Shown here one piece after another: positions 1,440 through 53,428 of a stretch of DNA of 64,000 bases (positions within the stretch are counted from its first letter, which is position 1; every line of letters begins with the position of its first letter). The notes under the pieces are model-generated. The model saw nothing but the letters and a program-made list of their open reading frames with translations, was not told the DNA's origin and made no database searches. A program made the position numbers and the translations under genes. The stretch is from Candidatus Latescibacterota bacterium (GTDB lineage: Bacteria > Latescibacterota > UBA2968), in assembly GCA_965204375.1 (NCBI GenBank), contig OZ241986.1:4610898-4674897 (forward strand), written 5' to 3'.

Positions 1440-1554
1440 CGCTGTGTCTCCCTGTCTAATGCATTAGTTATCCTGAATATATACAACATTGCGACAGAAA
1501 AACAAAAAAATCTAAAAAAGTAAACGACCAACCGCTCTGCGCGTGGCGGCACAC

Positions 1555-1596
1555 CCTTCACCCTTCTTACTTCACACTTCTCACTTCATTCTTGAC
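1555..1596 (-). repeat. Heptanucleotide tandem repeat, about 6 degenerate units of NCTTCNN on the plus strand (GAAGTGW-type on the minus strand)
   Basis: Read directly in period 7: ccttcac ccttctt acttcac acttctc acttcat tcttgac. It belongs to the same family as the arrays at 11882-11950 and 13201-13235. Confidence 0.8.
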
Positions 1597-1620
1597 AGTC
1601 TCAATCCACCGCCATATATA
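1592..1620 (+). promoter_or_regulatory. Sigma70-like promoter candidate: TTGACA, 17-nt spacer, TATATA
   Basis: TTGACA lies at 1592-1597, followed by a 17-nt spacer and TATATA at 1615-1620. The ATG of the downstream gene starts at 1627, 7 nt after the -10 element, with no Shine-Dalgarno in between. Confidence 0.4.
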
Positions 1621-1626
1621 GGTGTC

Positions 1627-17480: not shown

Positions 17481-17567
17481 GGCACGCTCGTCCTCGACGC
17501 GAAACTATTTTGTGGCGTGCGGCACTACGTGCCATTCTTTAGTACTAATACCATTGGAAACCCTGCT

Positions 17568-18494
17568 ATGAATAACGTGTGGGAAGTACCCGAGCCTCTT
17601 TCGACCTGCGAAGTCCAGCTCGACGACAATACCGTCACCACTCTGCGGCGGCATGGAAATCCCGAAGGCCCCCGACTCGTTCTGAGCCACGGCAATGGCC
17701 TCGCAATAGACCTCTATTACCCTTTCTGGTCACGGCTCGCCGATGATTTCGACCTCATCATCTTCGACCTCAGGAACCACGGCTGGAATACCGTTGGTTC
17801 ACGCGAAAAACACAATATCCCGACGCTGGTCCGCGACCAACTCTGTATTTTTGAATCCATTGACCGTCACTATGGGAATAAACCAAAAACCGGTATATTT
17901 CACTCTGCTTCCGCACTGATAACCCTCCTATCATTAACGGCTATGGCAGACCTGTGGTCGTCCGCCCAAAGCAGCCATTTATCGGCGATGATTTTATTTG
18001 ATCCCCCTTTGTGCAAGCCCGGCAATAGCCAGATAGAATTCGATAAGGCCATCGAACACGCAGCCGCAACTACCCGCCGCCGCGGGTATTTGTTCCAAAC
18101 AGAAGAGGATTTTGCAGAACTCCTCAGCTATCTGCCCGGCTTCTCACGCGTCGTTCCCGGGGTTCGGGAACTCATGGCGCGAACAACACTTCGAAAGTCT
18201 GCTTATGAACAGGGTTACGAGCTTCGGTGTCCTCGCGACTACGAGGCGCAGATCACTGATTATTTCAGGAGTTTTTCTGCATTGACGGATTTTGAAACAC
18301 TGTCTTGTCCCACAAAGGTCATCGGAGCCGACCCCACCTTGCCCTATGCATTTCTGCCGACCATTGACCTTGGTGACATTCTAACTGTAGATTACGATTT
18401 CGTACCAGAAGCAACACATTTTCTTCAATTGGAAAAACCAGCGAAATGCGTTGATATGGTCCGGGAATTTCTCGAGATTAATCGCCTGTTGTAA
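17568..18494 (+). CDS. Alpha/beta-fold hydrolase (possible thioesterase/acyl hydrolase partner of the PKS)
   Basis: Track ORF 17517..18494. The start is probably ATG 17568 (MNNVWEVPEPL). It has the oxyanion-type motif LVLSHGNG and a nucleophile-elbow-like FHSASA instead of a canonical GxSxG. It ends 26 nt before the PKS start. Confidence 0.65.
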   Translation: MNNVWEVPEPLSTCEVQLDDNTVTTLRRHGNPEGPRLVLSHGNGLAIDLYYPFWSRLADDFDLIIFDLRNHGWNTVGSREKHNIPTLVRDQLCIFESIDRHYGNKPKTGIFHSASALITLLSLTAMADLWSSAQSSHLSAMILFDPPLCKPGNSQIEFDKAIEHAAATTRRRGYLFQTEEDFAELLSYLPGFSRVVPGVRELMARTTLRKSAYEQGYELRCPRDYEAQITDYFRSFSALTDFETLSCPTKVIGADPTLPYAFLPTIDLGDILTVDYDFVPEATHFLQLEKPAKCVDMVREFLEINRLL

Positions 18495-18520
18495 AACCCG
18501 TGCGAACATGGAGGTGTCAC

Positions 18521-21500
18521 ATGAAGCCGGATAAATCAGACCAACCAATAGCGATCGTAGGTATGGCGTGTCGATTTCCCAACGCACCGAATATCTCTGC
18601 CTTCTGGCGTCTGCTCGAAGCCGGTCAGAACGCCGTGACGGAAGGTTCTCCAGGCTCTGGCGTCGGCCGCGTGGGTACGCTCTTCCCAGACGCTGAGGTG
18701 CAGAACGACGCCTGCCGTTTCGGTGCCTTCGTCGATGACATCGACCTGTTCGACGCCACCTTCTTCCGCATTTCGCCAGTCGAAGCGCAACTGCTGGATC
18801 CCCAGCAGCGGATGATGCTGGAGACGAGCTGGCAGGCGCTCGAGGACGCGGGGATAGATCCGGATCGGCTAAAGGGTAGCCGCACCGGTGTGTACGCGGG
18901 AATCAGCAACAACGATTATCGGGGCGTAATCTTGGGATCCAGCAGAACTGCCGAGCCTTCCGCCAGCCTCTTCTCTGTCGCGGGCACCTCTCTGAACACA
19001 GCCATAGGTCGAGTAGCCTTCGCACTGGGTCTTGGAGGACCGGCAATGGCGGTAGATACCGCCTGTTCGTCGTCGCTGGTTGCGACGAACCAGGCGGTTG
19101 CTGAATTGCAGCAGGGCAAAGCGGATCTGGCACTGGCGGGCGGGGTGCAGGCGATCCTTTCCGGGCGGCTAACCGAACTGCGGGGAAATGCCGGGATGTT
19201 GTCGCCAGACGGGCAATGCAAGGCGTTTGATGCGTCTGCGAATGGCTTCGTGCGAGGTGAAGGCTGCGGAATTGTGGTCCTCAAACGGCTGAGCGAAGCA
19301 GAGGCCGATGGCGATCACATCTGGGGCGTCATCCGAAGCACCGCGGTAAACCAAGATGGCGCGAGTACAGGCCTGACGGTACCAAACGGTCCGGCACAGG
19401 AGCGCGTGATCGAAGAGGCACTATCGCGGGCGGGAATTCTGCCATCGGAAGTCGATTATGTGGAGGCACACGGAACGGGCACAGAGGTGGGCGACCCCAT
19501 TGAGATAAACGCGACAGCAGCGGTGTACGGCAGGGGACGCGACGCGGACAACCCGATACTCGTCGGCTCGGTAAAAACAAATATCGGTCATCTGGAGCCA
19601 ACCGCGGGGGTTGCGGGCCTGATCAAGACCGTACTCTCGATGAAGCAGGGCGTGATCCCAAAGCATCTGCACTTCGAGAATCCCAATCCGAACATGGACT
19701 GGGATCGACTACCTCTGCGAGTGACTTCCGAGGCAATGGACTGGCCGCTCAACGCCGAACGACCACCGATTGCGGGAGTGAATTCGTTCGGATGGTCGGG
19801 CACAAACGCGCATGTCATAGTGGAGGGGTACGGAACACCAAAAAGCAGTGATGAAGAGTATTTACCCGTGGGATCCGCACGGCCTGTTGCCATTTCTCTA
19901 CCGAAGTCAGTGCTGCCGCCGGAGGAAGAAATCGGCGCGCGCAGGACGCGATTGCTGCCGCTATCGGGAAAATCCGATGAAGCGCTTCGAGACCTGGCGG
20001 GGCAGTATCTGAAACGCGGTTTTGCTTCCGAAGATGAAGCCAGGCTTGCCGACATGGCGTGGACAGCCGGCGTGGGACGAAGCCATTTCCCTCACCGCGC
20101 GGGCATCGTATTCAGCGATGGCGCATCGCTGCGCGAGAGCCTGAGTGCACTCGCAGAGATCAGCACGAGACCTGCACCGCAAACGCCCTCCAAAATCGCA
20201 TTTGTATATACCGGACAGGGTAGCCAGTGGATCGGCATGGGCGAAAACCTGTACCACACCGAACCAGTGGTGCGCGCAGTGCTGGACCAATGCGACGCCG
20301 TACTGCGGGAAGCGCGAGGCACCTCATTGCTCGATGTGATGTTCGGACGCGCAGGTGATTTATCCGACCAAGCGTGGACACAACCAGCTATTTTTGCCAT
20401 AGAATGCACGCTGACGGCGCTCTGGAAAAGTGTGGGTATTACACCCAGTGTGGTGCTCGGACACAGTCTTGGAGAACTGGCAGCGGCACAAGCCGCGGGT
20501 GTATTTAGCATAGAAGAAGGTGTGCGATTTGCCGCGGCGAGAGGTGAACTGACAGCGACACTGCCCGGTGGTGGGGCCATGGCGGCCATTTTTGCGGATG
20601 TGTCACAGGTAGAATCAGCCCTCAACGAACTCAACGCAGCTTCCACAGGCGTGGGACTGAGCATGGCGGCATACAACGGCGCGCATCAGGTGGTGAGCGG
20701 TCCCGAAGAAAAAGTCGAGGCGATCTCCGAGCACTTCCTCGCGCAGGACATTCGGGTCAGCCGCTTGCGCACCACGCACGCATTCCACAGTGCATTGGTA
20801 GAACCGATGCTGGACAAACTGGATGCCATAGTCTCAGAGATCGCGGTCGCATCCCCATCGCTCACCCTGGTGAGCAATGTGACGGGTCAGGTGCTGGAAA
20901 CGGGAAAACGTCAGGATAGTGCGTATTGGCGTCAGCACACGCGAAAGCCAGTGGCATTCGCGCCAAGCATCGAGACATTGGCTGGGCTGGGCGTCGATCT
21001 CGTCATTGAAGTCGGTCCGCACGCCGTGCTGAGTACAATGACGACCCTGTCGTGGCCAGACACGGCAGAGGGTCCTCCTGTTGCGCTACCGAGCTTATTG
21101 CGCCCCTCGTCCAAAGTGTCGCAAGCAGAAGCCGACCGCGCATTTACAGCGGCGGTTGCAAAAGCTTATGAAGCGGGTCTTTCCGTGTCCTTTGCCGGAC
21201 TGTTCGCAGGTGAAACCCGGCGCCGCATTTCGCTGCCGAGCTATCCTTTCCAGCGCGAACGCTACTGGGTCGAAGCGCCGAAACGACGGCGGCAGATCGC
21301 CGGCCATCCCCTCCTGGGCGAGAGGCATGAATCCGCCAGCGGCGAGATCGCGTTCGAGACCGAAGTACTCCCCTCGGATCCGACTTGGCTGAACGATCAC
21401 CGGGTATTCGGCCGTGTCATAGCCCCGGGCGCGCTCTATGGGGCGATGGCGATATCGGCATCCATGGCTGAGGAAAGCGGATCGATGGTCATCGAGGAAA

Positions 21501-24500
21501 TGCAACTGCACAACGCGCTGATCTTCCCGGAGGAGAGTGCGGATAACGATGAAGGCGGGGGCCGAGAAATGCAGGTTCTGCTCGAGGCTCCGGGGGAGGA
21601 GCCTTCGCGCCTCGTTCGAATATTCAGCAAAGGAGAGGCCGAGGAGGATTGGACGCTGCACGCGGAGTGTCGCGCGCCATCGGATACCAACGCGCAGCAA
21701 GCCTCTGAGCAGGTGAATCTGGAAAGCCTGAAGGCCGGTCTGTCGCCCGAGGACGTGCCGGCGTTTTACCGCGCCAAGGCGGGCGTCGGGATCGATCTCG
21801 GCCCATCGTTCCGCACGCTGAGGATGGTCTGGTCCCGGGCGGGCGAGGCGTTGGGAGAAGTGTGTTTCCCCGAGGCTCTCGGCGGGAACGATCTCGACGT
21901 ACACCCGCTCCTGCTCGACGGTTGCTTTCAGGTGATGGGAGCCGCGCGCAATCCGGGTGGAGCCGAAGACGGAATCACCTATCTGCCGTTCGGCTGGGAG
22001 CGGCTGTGGCTGCCGGATCGGCTACCGGATCGGTTTCTCTGCCACATGCGCATGCGGGAGGCTTCGAAGAATCGGGAACCGGATGCCGAAACCGGTGGGT
22101 CGCCGGAGGTCTTTGTAGGGGATTTCCTTCTCTACGACCAGAGTGGGGTCCTGATCGGCGAATTGAGCGGATTCATGGTGAAGCGTGCGACGCGGGCGGC
22201 GCTGCTCTCGGCAGTGGAAGGGGTTCAGGAACTGCTCTACGAGGTCATGTGGCGCGAAAGCACCCTTGCGCCGGGACTGCTGCCAGCGGATTTCCTCCCG
22301 AGTCCGGGAGAGGTTGCGGACCGGTGGGAGCTGTTCTCCGACTACCTGGCGGCGGAAGGAGTCGATGCCGGATTGAGGCCCGCCTGGTTGGCGGACCTCT
22401 CGTGCATGGCGCGGCATTTTGCGCTCTCTGCCCTGGAGAAACTCGGATGGGAGAGAAAGGCGGGCACCGCCGTGGACTCCGAAGATTTGCGGCAGCGCCT
22501 GGGGGTCCTGGATGAACACAGCCGTCTGTTCCGCCGGATGCTCGAGATATTGGCTCGCGCAGGCGTTCTGGAGGCGGCGGGCGAAGGTTTTGTCGTTGCC
22601 GTAGGGGCCGGAGAGCCGCTGCCAGAAGGAATTCCGGGCAATCCCGAGCAGTTCGCGGCACAAGTGAACGAGCGTTACTCGTATGCTTCAAGCGAGATCG
22701 GGATTTTTCGCAGAAGCGCGGGTGCCCTGGCGGAAGTGCTTCGCGGCGAAGAGGATCCGCTGTCGCTTCTCTTCGGCAGCGGAGAACCCAGCGCCGCGGA
22801 TCTCTATTTCAAGGCACCGATATATCGAGCGTCGAACCGGATGTTGGGAGACGCGGTGCGCACACTTGTAGCCGGGTTGCCCGAAGGACGGCGCTTGAGG
22901 GTGATTGAGGTCGGGGCGGGTACCGGATCGGCGACCGAATCCGTCCTGCCGGAGCTTCCCGAAGGGCGGTACGACTACATGTACACGGATATCTCGGCGG
23001 GTTTCTTCGCGCAGGCAGAGGGGTTGTTCGGCGATGAGTGTATCGAGTACCGGGTGCTGGACATCGAAAAAGACCCCGTAGAGCAGGGATTCGACCCCCA
23101 CGGTTATGACTTGTTGATTGCGTCCAATGTGCTGCACGCCACGCGGTACCTGGAGGAGACGCTAACGCACTGCCGGAGCCTTCTCGCGCCGTCGGGACAT
23201 CTCGTGGCACTCGAGAACCTTTGCGGCCAGGATTGGCTGGATATGACTTTCGGACAATTGGACGGCTGGTGGCGGTTCTCCGACGACTGCCGCCCCACCT
23301 ACGCCCTGGCGGGGCCAGACGTATGGCGACAGTCCCTCGGCAGCGTGGGTTTCGAAGGCGTGGAGATTCTGGGACTGGGCGGACCCGACGCCGCCGAGAT
23401 GCCGGATAGGGGCGTGATTCTGGCGCAGCTGCCCGAAGAGGTCGCCGAGCAGCGCGGAGTATGGGTTCTGGCGGCGGACCGCGGCGGCGCGGCGGCGGAG
23501 CTGGCCCTGGAGTTGGCGGCGCGCAACCAGACGGTTGTGCTGGCGAGCGATGCAGGTTCGACGGGAGAGGGTCCGGCGGATGAAAAAACTGCTGTCATCC
23601 ATACGTCCCTGGAGATGGAGCACCGAGAATCGTGGCAGTCGCTGCTCGAAGACCTGCCCGGGCATGCGGCACTCAGCGGTGTCGTGCATTTCGCGGCGCT
23701 CGACGGCCACGGCCCCGATACGACGACTGCTGAAATGGCGGAGAACGTGAAACGAGTGGGAGCAAGCGCATTGGCGCTGGCGCAGGGTCTGGCCGACGCC
23801 GATGTGACGCCCGAGAAGGGCTTGTGGTTTCTCACGCGGGGCGCGCAGGTGCTGGAGCGCGAACGCGCCGGAGAGCTTGTCGGCGCGACGCTATGGGGTT
23901 TCGGAAAGGTACTGGCCCGGGAAGCATCCCACATGCAGCCGAAGATGATCGATCTGGATCCCGAGCCTACGGCACCGCCGGTAGATCTCGCCAATGAACT
24001 GCTCTATCCCGATACGGAAGACCAAATCGTACACCGCGGCAGCCGACGCCGCGTAGCCCGCCTTGTCCGGACCGGCGAGGGGACGGATAGGATAAACTTG
24101 CCCGAAGAGCCGGGCTGGATGCTGGGGGTCGGCGAGGACGGCGCGATCGCTGACCTGCAGGTGGCGCCGACGCCGCTGGAGTCGAAAGAAGTTCGCGTGG
24201 CTGTCGAGGCCGCCGGATTGAACTTCTGGGATGTGTTCGCGGCACTCGGTTTGATTGACGAGAAATTCCTGGGCACGGAGTTTTGCGGCCATATCATCGA
24301 GGTCGGCTCCGAGGTGGCGAGCGTTGCGGTGGACGATCGCGTCGTGGGATTGGCATTCGGCACCTTCGGGCCGGAGGTGGTGACCCGGGCGGAACTCTTG
24401 GCACCCGCGCCACCGGATTTGTCCGCTACGGCGCTCGCCTCAATGCCGACGGTGTTCGTGTCAGTCGCGCTGTCTTACGAACTCGCGGGGCTGAAAGCCG

Positions 24501-27500
24501 GTGACCGCGTGCTGATTCACGCAGGCGCGGGCGGCGTGGGGCTTGCGGCCATCCAGTGGGCGCAGGCGGCGGGAGCGGAAGTGTTCGCGACGGCGAGCGC
24601 GCCGAAACAGGCGTATCTCCGCTCGCTCGGCGTAAAGCATGTGTTCGACAGCCGTCAGACGAAATTCGGGGAGGAAATCCTCAAGGCCACGGGGGGTGCA
24701 GGGGTCGATGTGGTATTGAACAGCCTGACGGCGGAAGGTTTCATCGACGCGAGTCTGGCGTGTCTGGCGCATGGTGGCCGGTTCGTGGAACTGGCGGCGC
24801 GGGACATTCTGAGCGAGGAAGAGATGGCGGCCGTACGGCCGGACGTGGCCTATTACATCGTGAATCTTCATGCCATGAAGGGGGATGACCCGGCGCGACC
24901 CGGCGCTTTGCTGAGAGATGTCATGAAACGGCTGGCAGCGGGAGAACTAACGCCGCTCATCCACACCAGATGGCCGCTTGCCGAAGCGAGACGGGCCATT
25001 GAGTTCATGCGCGACGGTAGGCACATCGGAAAAATCGCCTTTGCGAATTCGCCGCTCACCAGTGGGCGGTTGCGAGAGGATCGAACCTATCTGGTAACAG
25101 GTGGTCTGGGTGGGATCGGGTGCGTAATGGCCGACTATTTGGCGGATCGCGGCGCGGGTGCAATCGCGCTAAACGGGCGCCGGGCACCGAACCCTGAAGC
25201 CGAAGAGACGATCCGCAGGCTGCGGGAACGAGGCGTGACAGTGCAGGTAGAGATTGCAGATGTGACGGACGCCGATGCAATAGATGAGATGCTGGCGCGG
25301 ATGGATGAGACGCTACCGCCGCTGGGCGGCGTAATCCACAGCGTGGGGGTGTTGTCGGACGGTGCGCTCGGGAACCAGAGTTGGGAAAGATTCGAGCAGG
25401 TGCTGTGGCCGAAGGTGCTGGGCGCGTGGCATCTGCATCGCGCGACTGAGGACCGCGATCTGGATATGTTTGTCCTCTTCTCCAGCGTGGCCGGTGTGCT
25501 GGGCAATCCGGGCCAGTCGAACCACGCGGCGGCCAATGCGTTTCTGGATCAACTCGCCGCGCATCGCCGCGCACTCGGACTTCCGGGACAGACCATCGCC
25601 TGGGGCGCGTGGTCGGAACTCGGCGAAGCGGAAGAACAACGGGAACGGATTGCCGAACGGCTGGAAGCGCGAGGAACGGATTGGATAACTCCGCAGCAAG
25701 GTCTCAGGGCATTCGACCAACTGGTGCGCGAGGACGCCGCGACATCCGTCGTGCTGGCAGCCGATTGGTCGTCTTACGAGGAGGGCCTGGAATACCGGAT
25801 GCCCCTGCTGGAGGATCTGCTCTCCACCATTTCAGAAGACGAGGCCGACTCGCCTGCTCTGGCGGACGACCTGATGTCCCATCTGGCGGAAACGCCCGCG
25901 GCGGAGCGTGAGGCCCTGTTGGTATCGTTCCTGCAGCAGGAATTACAGGCGGTGCTGAGGTTGCCGACAGCACCCGAGCCCACGGTGGGATTTTTCGATC
26001 TGGGGATGGACTCGCTAATGGCCGTAGAATTGCGAAATCGGCTGAACCGCGCGTTTGCCGATGAGTACGTGGTCCCCAACACTGTGGTATTTGACTACCC
26101 GGACATCGCCCGTCTCGCCAACCATCTAATTGAGGAACTCGGCGAAGTCAGCACTGTGCCCGCCCCTCCACCCCAGGTGCAACCCGAGCCAGAGCCACAG
26201 ACGGAAGTACAGCGCGAGGACAACGGTATTGCGATTGTGGGCATGGCCTGCCGCTTCCCCGGCGCCCCGGATCTTTCCACCTTCTGGCAGCAGCTTGAAG
26301 CAGGTGCGGACGCCGTGACAGATGGACGCCGGGATTCCGGTTCATGGAACGCTCTTGCCAAAGACCTTCCTCCCGAATACGCCGCCTATCGCCGGGGCGG
26401 ATTTGTGGAGGAAATTGATCGATTTGACGCGAGATTCTTTCGGATTTCGCCGATTGAAGCGCGCATGATGGATCCGCGGCAGCGCATGATGCTGGAGACG
26501 ACCTGGCAAGCGCTCGAGGATGCGGGAATTGATCCAGACAAATTGAGGGGCAGCCGCACCGGGCTATACGCTGGCATCGCCACCAGCGAATACCGGGACC
26601 TGATGACAGCCAGCGACTACGGCATCAGTTATCTGAGCACTGCCGCGAGCATGACGGTCGGGCGAATTGCTTTCCTTCTTGGTCTGGAGGGACCGACGAT
26701 ACCGGTGGAACTCAACTGCGCGTCGTCACTGGTCGCAGTGCATCAGGCAGTGATGGGTTTGCGGGAGGGCGAAGTAGATATGGCCCTGGTTGGAGGGACA
26801 CACGCAGTTCTGTCACCTGAATTAACCAAAGAGATGGCGGAGTTGGGGATATTGTCGCGGGAAGGACAGTGCAAAACCTTCGATGCCTCTGCGGATGGCT
26901 TTGTGCGGGGCGAGGGCTGCGGGATGGTCGTCCTCAAGCGGCTGAACGAGGCAGAAGCAGATGGCGACCGCATCTGGGGCGTGATCCGCGGGTCTGCGGT
27001 CAACCAGAACGGGGCGAGCGCAGGACCCACCGTGCCAAACGGACCGGCGCAGGAGCGGGTAATTGAAGAGGCACTGTCGCGGGCGGGCGTTGCCCCATCA
27101 GAAGTAGATTATCTGGAAGCCCACGGGGGTGCGTCGGAGTTGGGCGACCCGATCGAAGTTCAGGCAGCGGCGGCTGTTTACGGCAAGAACCGCGAAGCAG
27201 ACCGCCCGCTTTTGATCGGCTCCGTGAAGACCAACATCGGTCACCTGGAGCCGGCTGCCGGGGTTGCGGCTCTGATCAAGGCAGTACTGGCGATGAAGCG
27301 AGGGGTGATTCCCAAAAACCTGAACTTCAAGAATCCGAGTCCGCATATAGACTGGGACCGGTTGCCGGTGCAGGTAGTATCAGCCCCGACGGACTGGCCG
27401 CGTCATCCCGATCGTCCGCCGCGGGCAGGGGTAAGCGCCTTCGGGATATCGGGCACGAATGCCCATGCTGTCGTAGAAGGGTATGACAGCCCGGATGCAA

Positions 27501-28579
27501 CGCCTGTGGGTGCCGCGCAACCCGTTTCTCTGTCGGTCGTGGATCTCATAGGCGAGGAAGAAGAATTCGCTCCGCGCCAGACGCGGCTCCTGCCCCTCTC
27601 GGGAAAATCCGATGAAGCGCTCCGAGATCTGACAGGACGCTATCTATCGTGGCTCGACGCGCTCGCATCCGAAGATGAGGCGACACTTGCCGACATGGCG
27701 TGGACAGCGGGTGTGGGGCGCAGCCATTTCGATCACCGCGTGGGCATCGTATTCCAGGATACCGAATCGCTGAGAGAGAGGTTACAGACACTCGCAGAGA
27801 TCGGTGAAAGACCTGAGCCACGTATGGCGACAAAGATCGCCTTCGCGTACACAGGACAGGACAGCCAGTGGATCGGCATGGGGAAAGACCTCTACGAAAG
27901 CGAGCCGGTAGTCCGCGCAGTTCTGGACCGTTGCGACGAAGTCCTTCGGGAAGAGCGGGACACCTCCTTGCTGGACGCGATGTTCGATCAGAACGGTGAT
28001 CTATCTGACCTGCCTGCCATCTATGCACTGGAATCCGCACTTACAGCACTGTGGTCAAGCGTGGGGATTCAGCCCAGCGTGGTGGTCGGACACGGTATAG
28101 GGGAAATTGCAGCGGCACAGGCAGCGGGCGTCTTTAGCCTGGAGGATGGCTTGCGGGTTGCAGCGGCACGGGACACGGACAGTCTGGAAGCCACCCTCAC
28201 AGACGTCACAATTGCATCGCCATCTTTGACCCTGGTGAGCAGTGTAACAGGAGAGATCGAGAGCCTTGACGCAGCATACTGGCATCGGCAAGCGCAGGCA
28301 CCAGTGGCATTCGACAAATGCGCGAAGAATCTGGCCGATCTGGGGATTGATGTACTCATCGAGATTGGCCCGAACGCAGTGCTGGATCCGATAGAGGGCG
28401 ACGCGAATCCACCCGTTGTGTTATCGAGTATAGGAGACAACGGTTTTGTAGAAGCAGTAGCAAAGGCTTATGAAGCGGGACTTTCGGTATCATTTCCCGG
28501 GCTATTTGCGGGAGAAACGCGCCGCCGCATCTCGCTGCCGAGCTATCCATTCCAGCACCAGCACTACTGGATTCAATAG
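18521..28579 (+). CDS. Type I polyketide synthase, KS-AT-DH-cMT-(structural KR)-ER-KR-ACP-KS-AT(degenerate)
   Basis: The ATG at 18521 is preceded by GGAGG (18510-18514); the track starts at GTG 18500. All domain signature motifs can be read in the translation; see the domain features below. Confidence 0.95.
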   Translation: MKPDKSDQPIAIVGMACRFPNAPNISAFWRLLEAGQNAVTEGSPGSGVGRVGTLFPDAEVQNDACRFGAFVDDIDLFDATFFRISPVEAQLLDPQQRMMLETSWQALEDAGIDPDRLKGSRTGVYAGISNNDYRGVILGSSRTAEPSASLFSVAGTSLNTAIGRVAFALGLGGPAMAVDTACSSSLVATNQAVAELQQGKADLALAGGVQAILSGRLTELRGNAGMLSPDGQCKAFDASANGFVRGEGCGIVVLKRLSEAEADGDHIWGVIRSTAVNQDGASTGLTVPNGPAQERVIEEALSRAGILPSEVDYVEAHGTGTEVGDPIEINATAAVYGRGRDADNPILVGSVKTNIGHLEPTAGVAGLIKTVLSMKQGVIPKHLHFENPNPNMDWDRLPLRVTSEAMDWPLNAERPPIAGVNSFGWSGTNAHVIVEGYGTPKSSDEEYLPVGSARPVAISLPKSVLPPEEEIGARRTRLLPLSGKSDEALRDLAGQYLKRGFASEDEARLADMAWTAGVGRSHFPHRAGIVFSDGASLRESLSALAEISTRPAPQTPSKIAFVYTGQGSQWIGMGENLYHTEPVVRAVLDQCDAVLREARGTSLLDVMFGRAGDLSDQAWTQPAIFAIECTLTALWKSVGITPSVVLGHSLGELAAAQAAGVFSIEEGVRFAAARGELTATLPGGGAMAAIFADVSQVESALNELNAASTGVGLSMAAYNGAHQVVSGPEEKVEAISEHFLAQDIRVSRLRTTHAFHSALVEPMLDKLDAIVSEIAVASPSLTLVSNVTGQVLETGKRQDSAYWRQHTRKPVAFAPSIETLAGLGVDLVIEVGPHAVLSTMTTLSWPDTAEGPPVALPSLLRPSSKVSQAEADRAFTAAVAKAYEAGLSVSFAGLFAGETRRRISLPSYPFQRERYWVEAPKRRRQIAGHPLLGERHESASGEIAFETEVLPSDPTWLNDHRVFGRVIAPGALYGAMAISASMAEESGSMVIEEMQLHNALIFPEESADNDEGGGREMQVLLEAPGEEPSRLVRIFSKGEAEEDWTLHAECRAPSDTNAQQASEQVNLESLKAGLSPEDVPAFYRAKAGVGIDLGPSFRTLRMVWSRAGEALGEVCFPEALGGNDLDVHPLLLDGCFQVMGAARNPGGAEDGITYLPFGWERLWLPDRLPDRFLCHMRMREASKNREPDAETGGSPEVFVGDFLLYDQSGVLIGELSGFMVKRATRAALLSAVEGVQELLYEVMWRESTLAPGLLPADFLPSPGEVADRWELFSDYLAAEGVDAGLRPAWLADLSCMARHFALSALEKLGWERKAGTAVDSEDLRQRLGVLDEHSRLFRRMLEILARAGVLEAAGEGFVVAVGAGEPLPEGIPGNPEQFAAQVNERYSYASSEIGIFRRSAGALAEVLRGEEDPLSLLFGSGEPSAADLYFKAPIYRASNRMLGDAVRTLVAGLPEGRRLRVIEVGAGTGSATESVLPELPEGRYDYMYTDISAGFFAQAEGLFGDECIEYRVLDIEKDPVEQGFDPHGYDLLIASNVLHATRYLEETLTHCRSLLAPSGHLVALENLCGQDWLDMTFGQLDGWWRFSDDCRPTYALAGPDVWRQSLGSVGFEGVEILGLGGPDAAEMPDRGVILAQLPEEVAEQRGVWVLAADRGGAAAELALELAARNQTVVLASDAGSTGEGPADEKTAVIHTSLEMEHRESWQSLLEDLPGHAALSGVVHFAALDGHGPDTTTAEMAENVKRVGASALALAQGLADADVTPEKGLWFLTRGAQVLERERAGELVGATLWGFGKVLAREASHMQPKMIDLDPEPTAPPVDLANELLYPDTEDQIVHRGSRRRVARLVRTGEGTDRINLPEEPGWMLGVGEDGAIADLQVAPTPLESKEVRVAVEAAGLNFWDVFAALGLIDEKFLGTEFCGHIIEVGSEVASVAVDDRVVGLAFGTFGPEVVTRAELLAPAPPDLSATALASMPTVFVSVALSYELAGLKAGDRVLIHAGAGGVGLAAIQWAQAAGAEVFATASAPKQAYLRSLGVKHVFDSRQTKFGEEILKATGGAGVDVVLNSLTAEGFIDASLACLAHGGRFVELAARDILSEEEMAAVRPDVAYYIVNLHAMKGDDPARPGALLRDVMKRLAAGELTPLIHTRWPLAEARRAIEFMRDGRHIGKIAFANSPLTSGRLREDRTYLVTGGLGGIGCVMADYLADRGAGAIALNGRRAPNPEAEETIRRLRERGVTVQVEIADVTDADAIDEMLARMDETLPPLGGVIHSVGVLSDGALGNQSWERFEQVLWPKVLGAWHLHRATEDRDLDMFVLFSSVAGVLGNPGQSNHAAANAFLDQLAAHRRALGLPGQTIAWGAWSELGEAEEQRERIAERLEARGTDWITPQQGLRAFDQLVREDAATSVVLAADWSSYEEGLEYRMPLLEDLLSTISEDEADSPALADDLMSHLAETPAAEREALLVSFLQQELQAVLRLPTAPEPTVGFFDLGMDSLMAVELRNRLNRAFADEYVVPNTVVFDYPDIARLANHLIEELGEVSTVPAPPPQVQPEPEPQTEVQREDNGIAIVGMACRFPGAPDLSTFWQQLEAGADAVTDGRRDSGSWNALAKDLPPEYAAYRRGGFVEEIDRFDARFFRISPIEARMMDPRQRMMLETTWQALEDAGIDPDKLRGSRTGLYAGIATSEYRDLMTASDYGISYLSTAASMTVGRIAFLLGLEGPTIPVELNCASSLVAVHQAVMGLREGEVDMALVGGTHAVLSPELTKEMAELGILSREGQCKTFDASADGFVRGEGCGMVVLKRLNEAEADGDRIWGVIRGSAVNQNGASAGPTVPNGPAQERVIEEALSRAGVAPSEVDYLEAHGGASELGDPIEVQAAAAVYGKNREADRPLLIGSVKTNIGHLEPAAGVAALIKAVLAMKRGVIPKNLNFKNPSPHIDWDRLPVQVVSAPTDWPRHPDRPPRAGVSAFGISGTNAHAVVEGYDSPDATPVGAAQPVSLSVVDLIGEEEEFAPRQTRLLPLSGKSDEALRDLTGRYLSWLDALASEDEATLADMAWTAGVGRSHFDHRVGIVFQDTESLRERLQTLAEIGERPEPRMATKIAFAYTGQDSQWIGMGKDLYESEPVVRAVLDRCDEVLREERDTSLLDAMFDQNGDLSDLPAIYALESALTALWSSVGIQPSVVVGHGIGEIAAAQAAGVFSLEDGLRVAAARDTDSLEATLTDVTIASPSLTLVSSVTGEIESLDAAYWHRQAQAPVAFDKCAKNLADLGIDVLIEIGPNAVLDPIEGDANPPVVLSSIGDNGFVEAVAKAYEAGLSVSFPGLFAGETRRRISLPSYPFQHQHYWIQ
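18545..19830 (+). other. PKS domain KS1 (ketosynthase)
   Basis: IAIVGMACRFP; active-site DTACSSSL (Cys codon 19064-19066); EAHGTGTEVGDPIE; KTNIGHLEPTAG; GTNAHVIVEGY. Confidence 0.9.
20195..21035 (+). other. PKS domain AT1 (acyltransferase, malonyl-type motifs)
   Basis: FVYTGQGSQWIGMG; GHSLGE (Ser codon 20465-20467); HAFHS (20777-20791), which is generally associated with malonyl-CoA selectivity. Confidence 0.9.
21305..22200 (+). other. PKS domain DH (dehydratase)
   Basis: HPLLGE; HxxxGxxxxP read as HRVFGRVIAP (His codon 21398-21400); a later LLDGCFQ (DxxxQ). Boundaries are approximate. Confidence 0.8.
22670..23370 (+). other. PKS domain cMT (SAM-dependent C-methyltransferase)
   Basis: Motif I VIEVGAGTGS (22901-22930); YDLLIASNVLHAT downstream. 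Boundaries are approximate. Confidence 0.8.
24130..25045 (+). other. PKS domain ER (enoylreductase, MDR type)
   Basis: VRVAVEAAGLNFWD; NADPH-binding LIHAGAGGVGLAAIQ (from 24518). Boundaries are approximate. Confidence 0.85.
25088..25640 (+). other. PKS domain KR (ketoreductase), with His at the position of the catalytic Tyr
   Basis: Rossmann motif YLVTGGLGGIG (from 25088). FSSVAGVLGNPGQSNHAAANAFLD occurs where typical KRs read ..GQ.NYAAAN. (CAC codon at 25523-25525). Confidence 0.8.
25900..26135 (+). other. PKS domain ACP1
   Basis: GFFDLGMDSLMAVELRNRL (Ser codon 26012-26014), followed by a Pro/Glu-rich linker PAPPPQVQPEPEPQ. Confidence 0.9.
26228..27485 (+). other. PKS domain KS2 (second ketosynthase, catalytic C-H-H retained, divergent active-site context)
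   Basis: IAIVGMACRFP; VELNCASSL (Cys codon 26717-26719) instead of DTACSSS; EAHGGASELGDPIE; KTNIGHLEPAAG; GTNAHAVVEGY. Confidence 0.85.
27836..28385 (+). other. PKS domain AT2, degenerate (AT0): nucleophile Ser replaced and about 90 residues deleted
   Basis: FAYTGQDSQ instead of GQGSQ. GHGIGE instead of GHSLGE (Gly codon 28094-28096). The segment holding the small subdomain and the HAFH motif is missing when aligned by eye to AT1. Confidence 0.8.
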
Positions 28580-28601
28580 CCAAAACGACCACAAAAAAAA
28601 T

Positions 28602-28630
28602 TTGACTTTACGCATGCCGATCACTATCTT
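28602..28630 (+). promoter_or_regulatory. Sigma70-like promoter candidate for the discrete ACP gene (TTGACT, 17-nt spacer, TATCTT)
   Basis: Hexamers read directly in the 92-nt gap between the PKS stop and the ACP start. Confidence 0.3.
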
Positions 28631-28671
28631 TTCGGTTCAAACTATCTTACTCTTACGAAAGGAGCGTAACA

Positions 28672-28911
28672 ATGGCTTCAACCGAAGAACGTATCAGAAA
28701 CCTCATCGCGGAAAATCTGGAAGTCGATGGGCAGCCAATTGCGTTACCCGATGATCTGAGCATCAGCCTTCTGGAGGCCGGAATTTCCTCCGTAGATCTC
28801 GTCGCGTTCGCGAAAATAGTCGAACAAGAATTTGACGTTAAATTGACTCTTGAAGATTGTACTAATCTCAACAGCGTACGGGAACTGGTCGCGCGGCTGG
28901 ACGCAGCCTGA
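28672..28911 (+). CDS. Discrete acyl carrier protein
   Basis: 79 aa. LEAGISSVDLVAFAKIVEQEF aligns by eye with the LGADSLDTVELVMALEEEF region of bacterial ACPs (candidate phosphopantetheine Ser codon 28789-28791). AAGGAG lies upstream of the ATG. Confidence 0.8.
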   Translation: MASTEERIRNLIAENLEVDGQPIALPDDLSISLLEAGISSVDLVAFAKIVEQEFDVKLTLEDCTNLNSVRELVARLDAA

Positions 28912-28953
28912 GGCTGAAATCCTCTCCAGCCGGAGAACGTACGCTTCTTACAG

Positions 28954-28985
28954 AACAGGCCCCGGATGGAAATTCGGGGCCTGTT
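28954..28985 (+). terminator. Terminator-like hairpin after the ACP gene
   Basis: A perfect 11-bp stem pairs aacaggccccg (28954-28964) with cggggcctgtt (28975-28985), with a 10-nt loop. Only a weak T tract follows (ggtttat). Confidence 0.5.
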
Positions 28986-29023
28986 GGTTTATGGGAATTC
29001 GATGAAGGTTCCGCTTATTCAAC

Positions 29024-29063
29024 CCTTCACACTTCACAGTACGGGCGAAAGATTTTCGCCCCT
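29024..29063. repeat. Composite intergenic element: two CTTCAC heptads plus a GGGCGAAA/TTTCGCCC hairpin
   Basis: Read directly: ccttcac acttcac agt ac GGGCGAAA gat TTTCGCCC ct. It is near-identical to 35747-35779. Confidence 0.85.
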
Positions 29064-29073
29064 TCTCTTCACA

Positions 29074-30807
29074 ATGAATACCAATAACCCCAGCGGTGAC
29101 ACAGGCATCCGCTACCAGCCCGACGAAAGGCCTCCGGCGACACTCGCCCTCGGCCTTGGCTTGCAACTCGCGGTTCTCAGCATAGCCGCCATCATATTGG
29201 TCCCCACAGTCGTGATGCGCGCCGCCGGTACGACGGAAGCTTATCTGTCATGGGCCGTGTCTGCCACGGTCGTGGTCGGCGGGGTGGCCACAATTCTGCA
29301 ATCGATCCGCATCGGCCGGATCGGCATGGGCTACCTTCTCATTATGGGTCCGTCCGGAGCCTTCATCGCGGTCTGCATCACGGCGACCACCGAAGGCGGT
29401 CCGGCAATGCTCGCCACCCTGGTCGTCATCTCATCCTTCGTCCCGCTTGTGCTTTCCCATCGGCTTTCGCTATTCCAGCGACTCTTGACGCCGACTGTGG
29501 CGGGAACAGTAATCATGCTGATACCGATTACGATAATGCCGCCCATCTTCAATCTGCTATCGGTGCCCGGCGCACCAGCACTCGCTGCGCCGCTGAGTGC
29601 GCTTGCAACAATCATCATTATCAGCGGCATCGCGCTAAAGGCGGCCGGGGTGTTGCGCCTCTGGGCACCGGTTATCGGTGTTGCCGCTGGCTCGATAATT
29701 GGCGGCTTTTTCGGTCTATACGAGGTGGATCGCATTGCCGAGGCTTCGTGGATCGGCCTGCCGCCGAACGAATGGCCGGGCTTCGACCTCGACTTCGGGC
29801 CAACTTTCTGGGCACTTCTTCCCGCATTCTTACTCGTAGCCATAATCAGTACCATCCGAACGATCAGCAGTTCCGTCGCCATCCAACGCATATCGTGGCG
29901 TCAGAGCCGGGCAGTGGATTTCCAGGCGGTGGAAGGTGCGATAACCGTGGATGGGATGAGCAACTTGATTTCCGGTCTCGCAGGGACAATACCCAACACA
30001 GCCAACACGCTGGGCGTGTCGATGGCCGAACTCACCGGGGTCGGTGCCCGCAACGTCGGGATTGCCACCGGAGCAGTGTTTATTGCTATGGCATTTCTTC
30101 CGAAAGTACTCGCCCTGATTCTGGCGATACCAGGCCCCGTCATCGCAGCTTACTTCGCCATAATGCTGGCGACGCTCTTCGTAGTCGGCATTAAAATAGT
30201 CTTTCAGGATGGAATCGACTATCGCAATGGCATGATCGTCGGCATCGCATTCCTGGTCGGGGTTGGCTTCCAGAGCGGTCTGATATTTTCCGAGCATATC
30301 TCGGAATTTGCAGGCGGTCTTTTGCGGAATGGGATGAACGCTGGCGGTTTTACAGCCATCATCTTGACGCTATTTGTGGAACTAACAGAGCCTCGCCGCA
30401 GTCGGATAGAGATGACATTCGATTTTTCCGCCCTGCCAAAAATCAGGGACTTTCTCGGCGCGTTCGCATCTCGCAACGGCTGGGACACTGCAATGGCGAA
30501 CCGCCTGGACGCCGTCGCTGAGGAGACATTGCTAACACTCATCCCACAAGATGAAGAGAACCATGACCGACGGCACTTGCGCCTTATTGCGTACAAAGAA
30601 GAAGGCGACGCGGTTCTCGAGATCGTTGTCTCATCGGGAGAGGAGAACATTCAGGATCGGATCGCGCTGCTCGGCGAACAGACGGATGAAGCACCCATCG
30701 AGCGGGAAGTTTCACTTCGGCTATTGCGACATCTCGCGTCCTCTGTTCGCCACCAGCAATATCACGACACGGATATCGTAACCGTGCGCGTGAAAGCACA
30801 CGTCTAA
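29074..30807 (+). CDS. NCS2 (xanthine/uracil-type) family permease fused to a C-terminal cytoplasmic domain resembling an RsbW/SpoIIAB-like (HATPase-type) regulatory fold
   Basis: The track ORF starts at 28966, inside the terminator hairpin. I placed the start at ATG 29074 (MNTNNPSGDTGIRYQPDERPPATLALGLGLQL). Membrane blocks GLQLAVLSIAAIILVPTVV, GMGYLLIMGPSGAFIAV and TPTVAGTVIMLIPI resemble NCS2 signatures. The last ~135 aa (IEMTFDFSALPKIRDFLGAFASRNGWD...AVAEETLLTLI...LEIVVSSGEEN) are soluble. Confidence 0.7.
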   Translation: MNTNNPSGDTGIRYQPDERPPATLALGLGLQLAVLSIAAIILVPTVVMRAAGTTEAYLSWAVSATVVVGGVATILQSIRIGRIGMGYLLIMGPSGAFIAVCITATTEGGPAMLATLVVISSFVPLVLSHRLSLFQRLLTPTVAGTVIMLIPITIMPPIFNLLSVPGAPALAAPLSALATIIIISGIALKAAGVLRLWAPVIGVAAGSIIGGFFGLYEVDRIAEASWIGLPPNEWPGFDLDFGPTFWALLPAFLLVAIISTIRTISSSVAIQRISWRQSRAVDFQAVEGAITVDGMSNLISGLAGTIPNTANTLGVSMAELTGVGARNVGIATGAVFIAMAFLPKVLALILAIPGPVIAAYFAIMLATLFVVGIKIVFQDGIDYRNGMIVGIAFLVGVGFQSGLIFSEHISEFAGGLLRNGMNAGGFTAIILTLFVELTEPRRSRIEMTFDFSALPKIRDFLGAFASRNGWDTAMANRLDAVAEETLLTLIPQDEENHDRRHLRLIAYKEEGDAVLEIVVSSGEENIQDRIALLGEQTDEAPIEREVSLRLLRHLASSVRHQQYHDTDIVTVRVKAHV

Positions 30808-30824
30808 ACCCAAAGAGGAATACT

Positions 30825-33800
30825 ATGCGTATCGCGACGATATTTTTCAGTTTAATAGTCGCAGCATTTGAAATACACGCCAGCGAGATGGACCTCCCGC
30901 CCCGCGGAGAAGGATCCATAGCGTTTGAGATCGATGTGTGCAGTTTTCGATATCGGGGTCGCGAGGGATTCGAAGAGGTGACCCTGAGGTTCCCCGTAGC
31001 GCAATTTGCATTTTTGCGTCAAAACTCGGGGATTTATCTCGCGCGGTACAAGCCCTCGCTGCGGGTCCTGAACGATGACGGAGAAGTTGTGCAACAGGTG
31101 GAGGCAGAAAGCAGACTGACAGCCGAATCGCTGGAAGCCACCGTCGATACAGACCGCATGGTATATGACATGGTCCAGGTGCGCCTGCCTACAGGTCGCT
31201 ATCGCGGGGAACTGACCCTCAGCGACTTGCAGGCCGACCGGGCGGGATTGGCGGTATTTTCTCTCGATGTGCCCGCTTACGATCCCGGGAAAATAGGCAT
31301 GAGCGATCTGTACCTGTCTTCCGGATTCAATCCACAGGGTGCTGGAGAGAGCCTTGAGATGTTTCGAAAAAACGGGCGCTTGATCCTGCCCAACCCGGCG
31401 CGACAATATCGGCGAGGGACACCGCTCTACCTGTATTTTGAGGTGTATTATCTGGGCTATCAGAGCCACAGGGTTGAGATGCAGATAGAAGACCGATACG
31501 GACATCGCCTCTGGCGCGACCAGCGGTCATTTCCCGGGTATCGGGGTGAAGTCAAATTCGCCGAGGGTATTCCCACTCGTGAACTGCTGCCGGGAACATA
31601 CACGTTGCGGGTTCAGGTCACGACCGGGAGGGATACACTCGTATCGGCCCGAAAATTTGAAATAATGGGCGACGCGCTTGTTCCGGCTACTGGCTCTGAC
31701 GACCAGCGCGCAAAAACAGCACAACACTTATTAAAACGATTCGGTGGACCCAAGGCCGAAGCCATATATACTGGCCTGGGACGCGCAGACCGCGCGGCAT
31801 TTCTCTACGGATTCTGGATGGATCGCAATCCAATCGTGGCGCGGTCGTATTACAACCCACTCCTCGGTTTTGGTGCGCCTCCCAACCTGAACGGGGCGAT
31901 AATCACGGCCATGGGCAGGCGCAAAGAAATGGCAAAGCATCTCGACCCTCGCTATGCGGCTCGCCAAGTGCCGCCAGATACGGCACAGGCAAGAGATGCC
32001 CTATGGGTGCTCGAGGTGCTTCTCGATGAAGATGGGAACGATTTGATGGGACAGGCCGCCCGGGGGTATGCCTATTTGTTTGCGAGCAACTTACCCTATG
32101 CGGAACGGACATTTAACTCCGCATTGAACGCAGGTGGGGTATTGCCCGAAGTGTACAACGGTGTGGGGATCTCACACATGGGACGCAAGCGGTGGGACAA
32201 AGCCGTGACGGCTTATGGTCAGGCACTCGCCCTTCGCCCCGACTGGAAAACCGCGCAAGTCAACCGCGCGCTGGCTCGCTTACTCGGGGGCAAACAGCGG
32301 GCAGAAGACGCCTTGAAAGAGGCCATCGAAGCCTATCCGCATCACCCTGAGTTGCTGTATTTGCTCGGGCGGGTATTTGAACGCGAAGGCAAGATCGAAG
32401 CTGCCGAGAAAGCCTATACCCGACAAATTGTGGTAAACCCAATGCACGCGCGTGCGCGATTCGACCTGGGGCGAATATGGTTGAAGCAGGGACAACGCGC
32501 AAGGGCGACTCACGTGTGGCGCGAACTGATGGAAACGCGGCCCGAACTGCGCGAGGAATGCCTTCCCCTGCTCCTGGGTGTGTATCAACTGATGGGACAA
32601 ACAGGAGAAGCGCAAAAGGTGATGGCCGAGTATTTGCGCACCGTAGATGACGACACGCGCGGACTACTGCAAGACATCCGCCTTATTGCGACCCTGAAAG
32701 AAACCGCTACTTACGAGGCATTGCCGCCCGAGCAGCAGCCGGACTTTGTGCGGATGTTCTGGCAGCGCCGCGACCCCACGCCAGCCACGCCGGGCAACGA
32801 GCGGCTGGTAGAGCACTATCGGCGGGTACTCTATGCGATGCAGCATTTTTCAACCGGGCGCAAGCCGTGGGACAGGCGCGGGGAAATTTATATTCGCTAT
32901 GGAGAACCCGCGCACAAAAGCCGTTCGGGCAATGTGCGCTATGAGACGGATCCCGATGTCGTGCGGGTCAAGGAGCGGCTGTGGTTGGGCATTCCAGTAG
33001 ATGGTCGCAAGGAGATAATCGCGCGGATGGGCAGGTTGCGGACATCCCTGCAAGATGTGGCGATCCAGGATGAATACGGACTTGAGGTCACTGTAAACGA
33101 TTTTGAGGCAATAGACTTTGAATTGAACCCCAACCGCTCCCGTTTTGGTGCCACATCTTATAATCAGGTAAGTACTGACCGCTACCAGCCCACAGTGGAA
33201 CTCAGCGGCTATGATCGGGGTGCGAGCGATAAGACGGTGCGGGGCTATCCGCTCTATCCCATCGACAGCGGTACGCGCTGGGAATACTGGATTTATCCGG
33301 ATGTCGCCGGAGGAATTGAAGTGGTATTCACGGCTTTAGATCGAAAAGGGAACTACATCTATCCCGATATCCCGCAGGGCCGCAGCGAATCGCACTTCAA
33401 CATGGCGCTGTGGACAGACCGACGGCCAGACCGGCAGGTGGCATCGGCTATTCAAGCGCAGGCAGACCTCATGCCGCCCTTTGAAGATGTATTGAATTTC
33501 CATTTCGACGCAGTCGATTTCCAGGGGAAAAACGAGTACAGCCGCATGGAAGTGTATTACGGCGTACCCCTGGCAAATTTGCCAGACAGCGTTCAGGCGA
33601 CCGGCATTTTGGAACGGGGCATTGCGTTATTTGACAGCACCTGGAAACCCGTCTATCGAAAAATGGCACCCCTGCCTTTCGCGGTAGATGCGACGGATTC
33701 GCTGGGAGCAGGCGATCTCGCCGTTGATCAAATCGCCCTCAATCTGCCGCCGGGCGACTATCACCTGGGGGTGGAGGTACGCAGCCTGAAAGGCAACCTG

Positions 33801-35739: not shown

Positions 35740-35746
35740 AGAATCT

Positions 35747-35847
35747 CCCTTCACAACGGGCGAAAGGTTTTTCGCCCCTACCATTTATCTGTGTGTATCT
35801 GCGTAAAACGCTCAAATTACTCGCGTTTTTTCTGCGGATCACACTTC
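35747..35847 (-). repeat. Composite intergenic element: CTTCACA unit, GGGCGAAA/TTTCGCCC hairpin, 10-mer pair TATCTGYGTR and the 17-mer TCTGCGGATCACACTTC
   Basis: The hairpin pairs 35758-35765 with 35770-77. tatctgtgtg tatctgcgta follows. The 17-mer at 35831-35847 is identical to 10867-10883 and contains the TGA stop (35841-35839) of 35839..36615. Confidence 0.85.
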
Positions 35848-53298: not shown

Positions 53299-53377
53299 TG
53301 TATACCTTTAGAAGAGGGAGTAAGAAGTAATACGCAAGAGGTGAGTACACAGCCCAACGCACCAGCCCCTCTTTACA

Positions 53378-53393
53378 TGTTTCACGTGAAACA
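53378..53393. promoter_or_regulatory. parS centromere site (TGTTTCACGTGAAACA), perfect consensus palindrome
   Basis: A perfect 16-bp palindrome, read directly, in the rsmG-mnmE intergenic region. Confidence 0.8.
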
Positions 53394-53428
53394 GGGTACA
53401 ACTGGTCGCTGTCCAGACCAATTCAACA

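Follow-up and report, generated by a model that had tools for sequence, protein, structure and literature searches.

A sup-like polyketide synthase cassette with a terminal KS-AT0 didomain and a discrete acyl carrier protein in Candidatus Latescibacterota

We analysed a stretch of 64,000 nucleotides (the window hereafter; positions 4,610,898 to 4,674,897 of contig OZ241986.1, GenBank assembly GCA_965204375.1) from a Candidatus Latescibacterota bacterium, which contains a cassette of four genes around a large type I polyketide synthase (PKS). The domain order of this PKS is ketosynthase (KS), acyltransferase (AT), dehydratase (DH), C-methyltransferase (cMT), enoylreductase (ER), ketoreductase (KR), acyl carrier protein (ACP), then a second KS (KS2) followed by a remnant AT (AT0). 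The locus is very probably a sup (sponge symbiont ubiquitous PKS) cassette of a Latescibacterota symbiont, and we consider this identity, together with the mode of action proposed below, likely to be the best explanation of the locus as a whole. It is a new member, with a rearranged gene order lacking a phosphopantetheinyl transferase (PPTase), of a family that was first described in 2007.

In high-microbial-abundance sponges, PKS surveys are dominated by Sup PKSs. These enzymes are the leading candidates for the synthesis of mid-chain methyl-branched fatty acids, which are lipid markers of sponge symbionts; their product is still a proposal. Because near-identical cassettes are already present in public metagenome-assembled genomes (MAGs), the window adds little with respect to this product. 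Comparison with its relatives, however, yields a sharply delimited mobile unit of about 13.2 kb (hydrolase-PKS-ACP-permease, 17556-30795) and an invariant replacement of Tyr by His in the KR, which matters for any attempt at reconstitution, and it suggests that KS2 is selected for catalysis with AT0 serving just as a scaffold.

Identity of the cassette

The PKS gene is a single open reading frame (ORF) of 3353 codons including the stop codon, which starts with an ATG at 18521 behind a GGAGG motif and stops at 28579 (Table 1). The hydrolase gene ends at 18494, 26 nt upstream of this start, and the ATG of the gene for the free-standing ACP (28672) follows 92 nt downstream of the PKS stop. ORFs, coordinates and both spacings given in an earlier reading of the same DNA (the original prediction) were reproduced exactly by the ORF map; its limits for the cassette were correct, and a Pfam domain scan returned the same order of PKS domains.

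With the sup cluster the cassette shares a single reducing, C-methylating module (KS-AT-DH-MT-ER-KR-ACP, as evident from the Pfam order and the catalytic motifs), an ACP, a hydrolase and a permease as neighbours, the association with sponges and the occurrence in many phyla. An extra C-terminal KS-AT without an ACP, reportedly a feature of SupA, is also present. In contrast to sup, the gene order in the window is hydrolase-PKS-ACP-permease, no neighbouring Sfp-type PPTase is found within the 64 kb, and the host belongs to the Latescibacterota. The sup cluster was reportedly described by Fieseler et al. in 2007 and also by Hochmuth et al. in 2010; in the former, SupA is said to have the order KS-AT-DH-MT-ER-KR-ACP-KS-AT, and SupB, SupC and SupD to be an ACP, a PPTase and a hydrolase, respectively. 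The commonest gene order among the relatives analysed here, PKS-ACP-PPTase-hydrolase-permease (16 loci), corresponds to the lettering supA to supE, from which we infer support for the assignment. Published work presents sup as a mono-modular, sponge-specific and ubiquitous PKS that swamps KS amplicon libraries and whose proposed products are mid-chain-branched fatty acids (PMC4245539; PMC3908369), and lists SupE as a permease (PMC3908369). The cluster is present in MAGs of several phyla, with Latescibacterota listed for swf-like, not SUP-like, clusters (PMC9426513).

The original prediction likened the first module to mycocerosic acid synthase (MAS)-like enzymes and to Sup PKSs reported from sponge symbionts, and this resemblance holds. 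MAS and MAS-like enzymes of Mycobacterium also consist of a single KS-AT-DH-ER-KR-ACP module making methyl-branched fatty acyl chains. However, MAS uses methylmalonyl-CoA and has neither a cMT nor a second KS-AT nor a partner ACP, whereas the window PKS combines a malonyl-type AT (GHSLGE, HAFHS) with an S-adenosylmethionine (SAM)-dependent methyltransferase; the combination typical of MAS, a methylmalonyl AT and no methyltransferase, is thus not seen. The swf cluster (SwfA-C) is likewise a sponge-specific mono-modular PKS or fatty acid synthase (FAS) found across symbiont phyla, in which SwfA has the order KS-AT-DH-ER-KR-ACP without MT or second KS and is accompanied by a reductase/sulfotransferase (SwfB) and a radical SAM protein (SwfC) (PMC3908369). 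The window PKS differs in having both MT and second KS, and Pfam found no SwfB- or SwfC-like neighbours.

A scan of species-representative genomes, one per species, revealed 213 relatives in about ten phyla, with 45-95% identity. From these, 78 loci were fetched, belonging to Latescibacterota, Rhodothermales, Binatia/Deltaproteobacteria, Dehalococcoidia/Chloroflexota, Gammaproteobacteria, Bryobacterales/Acidobacteriota, Longimicrobiales/Gemmatimonadota, Actinomycetes and others. The window PKS is 94-95% identical at the amino acid level to those of three Latescibacterota loci (L002, L010, L017). A single uninterrupted ORF of 3150-3560 aa ending right past AT0 was found in 59 sequences (58 fetched loci and the window). 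A search with the C-terminal 859 aa of the PKS gave 7990 homologues; among the matches listed, the KR-ACP-KS-AT end is 50-73% identical, and the close relatives are all proteins from uncultured MAGs or metagenomes, many with names of sponge-microbiome series. The original prediction had regarded the architecture as unusual and undescribed. The terminal KS-AT0 with a free ACP is instead the norm of the family, being present in all 59 intact ORFs and in 115 of 118 metagenomic homologues, and the cassette is ordinary for the sponge habitat, common to hundreds of sponge-associated bacterial species. The further possibility raised there, that the locus belongs to a common and already characterised family, is correct in that the family is common and described, but characterised it is not, its product having only been proposed.

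Table 1. Features of the window (positions are those of the 64,000-nt stretch)
Feature	Position	Strand	Evidence
Alpha/beta-fold hydrolase (SupD-like), 308 aa	17568-18494	+	Pfam Abhydrolase_6
SupA-like type I PKS, 3352 aa, KS-AT-DH-cMT-ER-KR-ACP-KS-AT0	18521-28579	+	ORF map, Pfam
Free-standing ACP (SupB-like), 79 aa	28672-28911	+	Pfam PP-binding
NCS2/xanthine-uracil-type permease (SupE-like), 613 aa	28966-30807	+	Pfam Xan_ur_permease
KS1, canonical DTACSSS/HGTGT/NIGH	18542-19678	+	Pfam, motif alignment
AT1, predicted active, malonyl-type (GQGSQW, GHSLGE, Arg, HAFHS)	20201-21106	+	Pfam, motifs
Dehydratase (HxxxGxxxxP)	21305-22204	+	Pfam, motifs
C-methyltransferase core (SAM motif EVGAGTGS)	22883-23260	+	Pfam, motifs
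Enoylreductase (HAGAGGVG)	24182-25036	+	Pfam, motifs
Ketoreductase, catalytic Tyr replaced by His (codon 25523-25525)	25085-25618	+	Pfam, motifs
In-cis ACP (GMDSL; Ser codon 26012-26014)	25931-26128	+	Pfam, motifs
KS2 (Cys codon 26717-26719, His 27122-27124, His 27242-27244)	26216-27340	+	Pfam
AT0, remnant acyltransferase, nucleophile Ser replaced by Gly (codon 28094-28096)	27833-28399	+	Pfam, alignment
Ankyrin-repeat gene, in block 13164-17365	13213-14454	-	Pfam
Spermine-synthase-like gene, 959 aa, in block 13164-17365	14515-17394	-	Pfam
TPR/GWxTD gene, 1156 aa, in block 30802-34295	30825-34295	+	Pfam
rsmG	52660-53298	-	Pfam
mnmE	53429-54775	-	Pfam
yidC	54789-56492	-	Pfam
dnaA	57551-58933	+	Pfam

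The first module and its ketoreductase

Counted from a GTG at 18500 (subtracting 7 gives the numbering from Met), the Pfam matches in the PKS cover residues 15-393 (KS), 568-869 (AT), 936-1235 (DH), 1462-1587 (methyltransferase), 1895-2179 (ER), 2196-2373 (KR) and 2478-2543 (PP-binding), followed by the second KS and the second AT, for each of which the Pfam family matched in two stretches. In the first KS (KS1), all 59 full-length ORFs keep the catalytic Cys and the first His, and 58 of the 59 keep the second His. The malonyl-type motifs GHSLGE and HAFHS predicted for AT1 were confirmed.

An unusual feature of this module is its KR, in which the His of the motif SNHAAAN aligns with the catalytic Tyr (YxxxN) of the KR of Mycobacterium tuberculosis MAS. 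To our knowledge, this Tyr is present in all characterised KR domains of PKSs and FASs. The replacement by His is found in each of the 59 full-length family members and in 59 of 60 metagenomic fragments. The NADPH motif and the Ser, Lys and Asn of the KR are all conserved, as are the motifs of DH and ER, and the KR is among the best-conserved domains of the PKS: mean pairwise identities among 30 non-redundant family members are 0.79 for KR and 0.80 for the in-cis ACP, compared with 0.74 for KS1, 0.65 for AT1, 0.59 for DH, 0.73 for MT, 0.74 for ER, 0.65 for KS2 and 0.475 for AT0. Because of this conservation the KR is probably active with an unusual acid, and the sup family may use an unprecedented ketoreductase active site with His in place of Tyr.

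The KS2-AT0 didomain

In KS2 of the window the Cys lies in ELNCASS and the two His in EAHGGAS and NIGHLE, with altered flanking residues (CASS, HGGAS). Residues of KS2 and AT0 were compared among 118 metagenomic homologues from the search with the C-terminal 859 aa, in which the Cys and the second His are each kept in 117 sequences and the first His in 114; of the 59 full-length ORFs, all keep the Cys and the second His and 58 keep the first His. In trans-AT PKSs, KS0 domains that serve only for transfer typically lack the His of HGTGT, and loading KSQ domains and chain length factors (CLF) lack the Cys. Neither hallmark applies to KS2, whose triad is intact in the window and kept by 97-99% of its relatives. 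Since all three residues are retained, true decarboxylative condensation is the simplest reading of KS2.

The second AT, in contrast, has lost its catalytic residues, as the original prediction had recognised. The sequence GHGIGE replaces the GHSLGE of AT1, with Gly at the position of the nucleophilic Ser, GQDSQW stands in place of GQGSQW, and about 80-110 residues are missing, so that the small subdomain including the His of HAFH is deleted; a post-AT linker runs from AT0 to the PKS stop. At the nucleophile position, Gly is found in 100 of the 118 homologues and Ser in three, and these three are matches to KS1-AT1. In the family, AT0 falls short of the length of AT1 by about 80 residues. The proteins end 10-30 residues past the post-AT YPF motif. 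In some Gammaproteobacteria loci (L024, L035, L050, L056, L057, L065), whose PKS is about 3200 aa long, the AT0 match ends about 200 codons earlier, from which it appears that the AT remnant has been cut down further there. A 'Rosetta stone' protein, in which the free ACP would be fused behind AT0, was looked for; two long C-terminal tails (P0012, P0108) were the candidates, but these resemble out-of-frame read-through rather than ACPs.

Among close relatives the ratio of nonsynonymous to synonymous substitution rates (dN/dS) was 0.09-0.14 for KS1, 0.13-0.19 for AT1, 0.10-0.19 for KS2 and 0.19-0.32 for AT0. KS2 is, judged by these ratios, under purifying selection, with values as low as those of KS1. 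KS1 and KS2 sequences fall into separate groups, and their identity is the same within one protein (0.563) as between proteins (0.561), which indicates that the duplication is old and has been kept without gene conversion. These selection data make it unlikely that KS2-AT0 is a functionless, decaying relic of a lost second module, with the free ACP and the hydrolase serving other ends. AT0 is clearly dead and the fastest-evolving domain, and the flanking motifs of KS2 deviate from the canon, as would be expected of such a relic; but the triad of KS2 persists across about ten phyla at a dN/dS comparable to that of KS1, and the duplication predates the spread of the family and was never lost in the 59 intact ORFs. 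We therefore regard decay of the didomain as a very improbable explanation.

An AlphaFold model of ACP-KS2-AT0 (pLDDT 88.8) shows the fold of a KS-AT didomain, and its KS2-AT0 part superposes on the KS-AT didomain of CurL with a TM score of 0.81. Alignments to solved KS-AT structures stop soon past the AT0 nucleophile and resume at the LPSYPF tail, which in a trans-AT PKS structure (7zma) is matched by the post-KS flanking subdomain. Taken together, domain identities, dN/dS, the grouping of KS1 and KS2, the model and the structural alignments suggest that KS2 has been retained for its catalytic function and that AT0 persists solely as a structural partner of KS2. The KSs of trans-AT PKSs also carry an AT reduced to a scaffold; here, however, AT0 retains most of the large subdomain, and the working AT1 is part of the same polypeptide instead of a separate enzyme. 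Another terminal condensing unit is the KS-AT of the mycolic acid condensase Pks13, which joins a long acyl chain and a carrier-bound extender. Pks13 is the second-best NCBIfam match of KS2-AT0 (582 bits, far under the cut-off of 2100 bits), but in contrast to the window PKS it contains a thioesterase (TE), an active AT and ACPs of its own.

The KS1-AT1 and KS2-AT0 segments share 62% identity at the protein level and about 69% at the nucleotide level, and two PKS genes could in principle have been joined through such similar segments during assembly, a possibility which the original prediction had named as one that would undo it. This is not borne out. The same continuous ORF exists in 58 other assemblies, some of whose records are titled as assembled chromosomes, colinear copies (94-95% nucleotide identity over 13.4 kb) are present in four Latescibacterota MAGs, and KS2-AT0 carries family-specific substitutions never seen in KS1-AT1. 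With 59 sequences carrying the uninterrupted ORF, an assembly chimera is ruled out for practical purposes.

Accessory genes

The occurrence of accessory genes was determined by tblastn with the window proteins and the PPTase of a related contig at 63 loci with sufficient flanking sequence. A hydrolase adjoins the PKS at 54, an ACP at 50, a permease at 45 and an Sfp-type PPTase at 29 of these loci. The order in the window is common to nine Latescibacterota loci; two Rhodothermales loci also have it, and downstream of it a PPTase and a second permease.

In agreement with the original prediction, Pfam found no TE domain in the PKS, and no PPTase was detected in the 64-kb window by tblastn with the PPTase of the family or by Pfam scans of the other ORFs of at least 150 aa. 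By tblastn, a PPTase is also absent from the flanks (about 10 kb) of the nine Latescibacterota loci. Together with its presence at just 29 of the 63 loci this shows that the PPTase is not universal in the family; for the cassette in the window we propose that it is encoded elsewhere in the genome.

The hydrolase has the non-canonical nucleophile elbow noted in the original prediction, F-H-S-A-S replacing G-x-S-x-G. Its putative catalytic triad consists of the Ser in this motif, the Asp in LFDPP and the His in THFLQ, positions that are conserved across 60 loci, and conservation across 60 orthologues starts at the ATG at 17568. An AlphaFold2 model (pLDDT 85) had the CurM off-loading thioesterase (3qit) as its top fold match, by a narrow margin and among many generic alpha/beta hydrolases. 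By sequence, no PDB entry matched significantly (best E = 0.005), nor did any NCBIfam model reach its cut-off.

The free ACP, with the attachment Ser in G-I-S-S-V-D, scores 30 bits at best against the AcpP models of NCBIfam, below all of their cut-offs (66-106 bits), and by this measure is too divergent for a housekeeping AcpP. It is the only carrier without a cognate KS. A profile search found an ACP-like ORF in 60 of 80 sequences (79 loci and the window). Upstream of the ACP gene, promoter-like hexamers with 9/12 matches are present at 28602-28630, as the original prediction had stated, but such sites occur as often in shuffled sequence (6 found versus 4.5 expected), and a promoter of its own was therefore rejected for this gene.

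An exact-sequence look-up of the window permease gave no record, and its C-terminal extension of about 140 aa (30400-30807) has no match in Pfam or NCBIfam. Two types of permease accompany the sup cassettes of different phyla, with 39-44% versus 57-96% identity to the window permease; in most Chloroflexota loci the permease gene is on the opposite strand.

Proposed mode of action

The following steps are all inferred from the sequence. KS1 would be primed with a fatty acyl chain and AT1 would load malonate onto the in-cis ACP. A single condensation, SAM-dependent alpha-methylation and full reduction by KR, DH and ER would lead to a 2-methylacyl-ACP, whose acyl chain would pass to KS2 and be condensed there with malonate on the free ACP. 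As AT0 is dead, the free ACP would have to receive its malonate from AT1 acting in trans or from FabD, and AT0 would survive only as the structural partner of KS2. On the free ACP, the branched chain might either be elongated further by the type II FAS or be released directly; by either route the conserved alpha/beta hydrolase would off-load the product. The expected products would be mid-chain methyl-branched fatty acids, which matches the proposal for sup in the literature.

Our preferred reading, held tentatively and at somewhat less than even odds, is that KS2 truly catalyses a condensation onto the free ACP. Condensation by KS2 followed by release through the hydrolase had also been the core of the mechanism put forward in the original prediction. 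More specifically, KS2-AT0 and the free ACP might form a dedicated hand-off from a type I module to the type II FAS, an idea we regard as possible but rather doubtful. If it were true, the module would introduce one methyl branch originating from SAM, KS2 would carry out the condensation that FabF and FabB cannot perform on an alpha-branched chain, and the product would be placed on an AcpP-like carrier on which ordinary elongation resumes, explaining the mid-chain position of the branch.

The original prediction had the chain built iteratively, as in MAS. In such a scheme a multi-methyl chain would receive a last, unreduced unit from KS2 on the free ACP and would be freed by the hydrolase as a beta-keto acid, from which decarboxylation could yield a methyl ketone. 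A single fully reducing module does resemble the iterative MAS, which is also the best solved relative of the KR region (E = 1.2e-50), KS2 is condensation-competent by motif, no reductive domains follow it, and the hydrolase is conserved. On the other hand, malonyl-type AT1 and a branch derived from the cMT are unlike MAS, no feature of the sequence reports iteration, and a single round is consistent with the lipids that the literature links to sup, mid-chain-branched acids with one methyl group (PMC4245539). Iterative chain building is thus an unlikely alternative to a single extension followed by condensation on KS2.

Still less probable is a role of KS2-AT0 and the free ACP as a priming device, in which a starter would pass via KS2 to KS1 and the in-cis ACP of a partner subunit. 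Starter units are often found on free-standing ACPs that have an Sfp-type PPTase of their own, and the cassette has no other obvious loading function. However, Pfam found no acyl-ACP ligase or fatty acyl-AMP ligase (FAAL) in the cassette, and KS2 is located directly past the in-cis ACP and keeps the Cys and both His for decarboxylative condensation.

Several observations weigh against the sup assignment and the condensation on KS2 proposed here. The His-for-Tyr change in the KR affects all family members, and the model would fail if reduction were abolished by it. The product of sup is only a proposal in the literature found, and the sequence is silent on single versus iterative action, on the charging of the free ACP and on the cargo of the NCS2-type permease. 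The hydrolase matches the fold of a PKS thioesterase no better than that of generic esterases and lactonases, and about 11% of the loci consist of the PKS without any accessory gene within 10 kb. Finally, no protein named SupA-D is among the best 120 of 7990 or of 2692 homologues.

Mobility and mosaic history

The cassette differs in base composition from its surroundings (G+C 0.57-0.64 versus 0.50-0.53 in the flanks). Positions 17556-30795 are 84.4% identical at the nucleotide level, over about 13.3 kb and including the permease gene, to a Rhodothermales MAG (L008, 1504-14834). The cassettes of two Latescibacterota loci (L004, L007), in contrast, are just 77-79% identical, although their flanks are 88-93% identical to those of the window. 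Synonymous divergence (dS) per domain places the 5' 7 kb of the PKS gene closer to the Rhodothermales copy, but not KS2-AT0, which indicates that the gene is a mosaic. This pattern points to a cassette that is mobile between phyla, with cross-phylum transfer and allelic replacement.

Two blocks hugging the cassette (13164-17365 and 30802-34295) are absent from the closest relatives (L002, L003, L010, L017), whose flanking genes abut the cassette directly. The TPR/GWxTD gene (30825-34295) and the upstream ankyrin and spermine-synthase-like genes, all without counterpart in close relatives, were rejected as members of the cluster. A PhyH-like dioxygenase (35839-36615) was likewise rejected as a tailoring enzyme, as it belongs to the conserved flanking chromosome and lies beyond the transferred block.

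Other features of the window

The cassette lies about 26 kb from the likely origin of replication, whose neighbourhood extends from 52660 to 58933, with the G+C content dipping to 0.42-0.45 around 56-60 kb. Four sulfatase genes are located at 34297-35784, 40135-41583, 44383-45678 and 60210-61580; sulfatases together with ankyrin and TPR proteins are a gene content usually linked to sponge symbionts. At the other end of the window, two paralogous genes with DUF6785 and DUF6784 (1543-3573 and 6237-8189) enclose a PMT_2/TPR glycosyltransferase-like gene (4301-6133).

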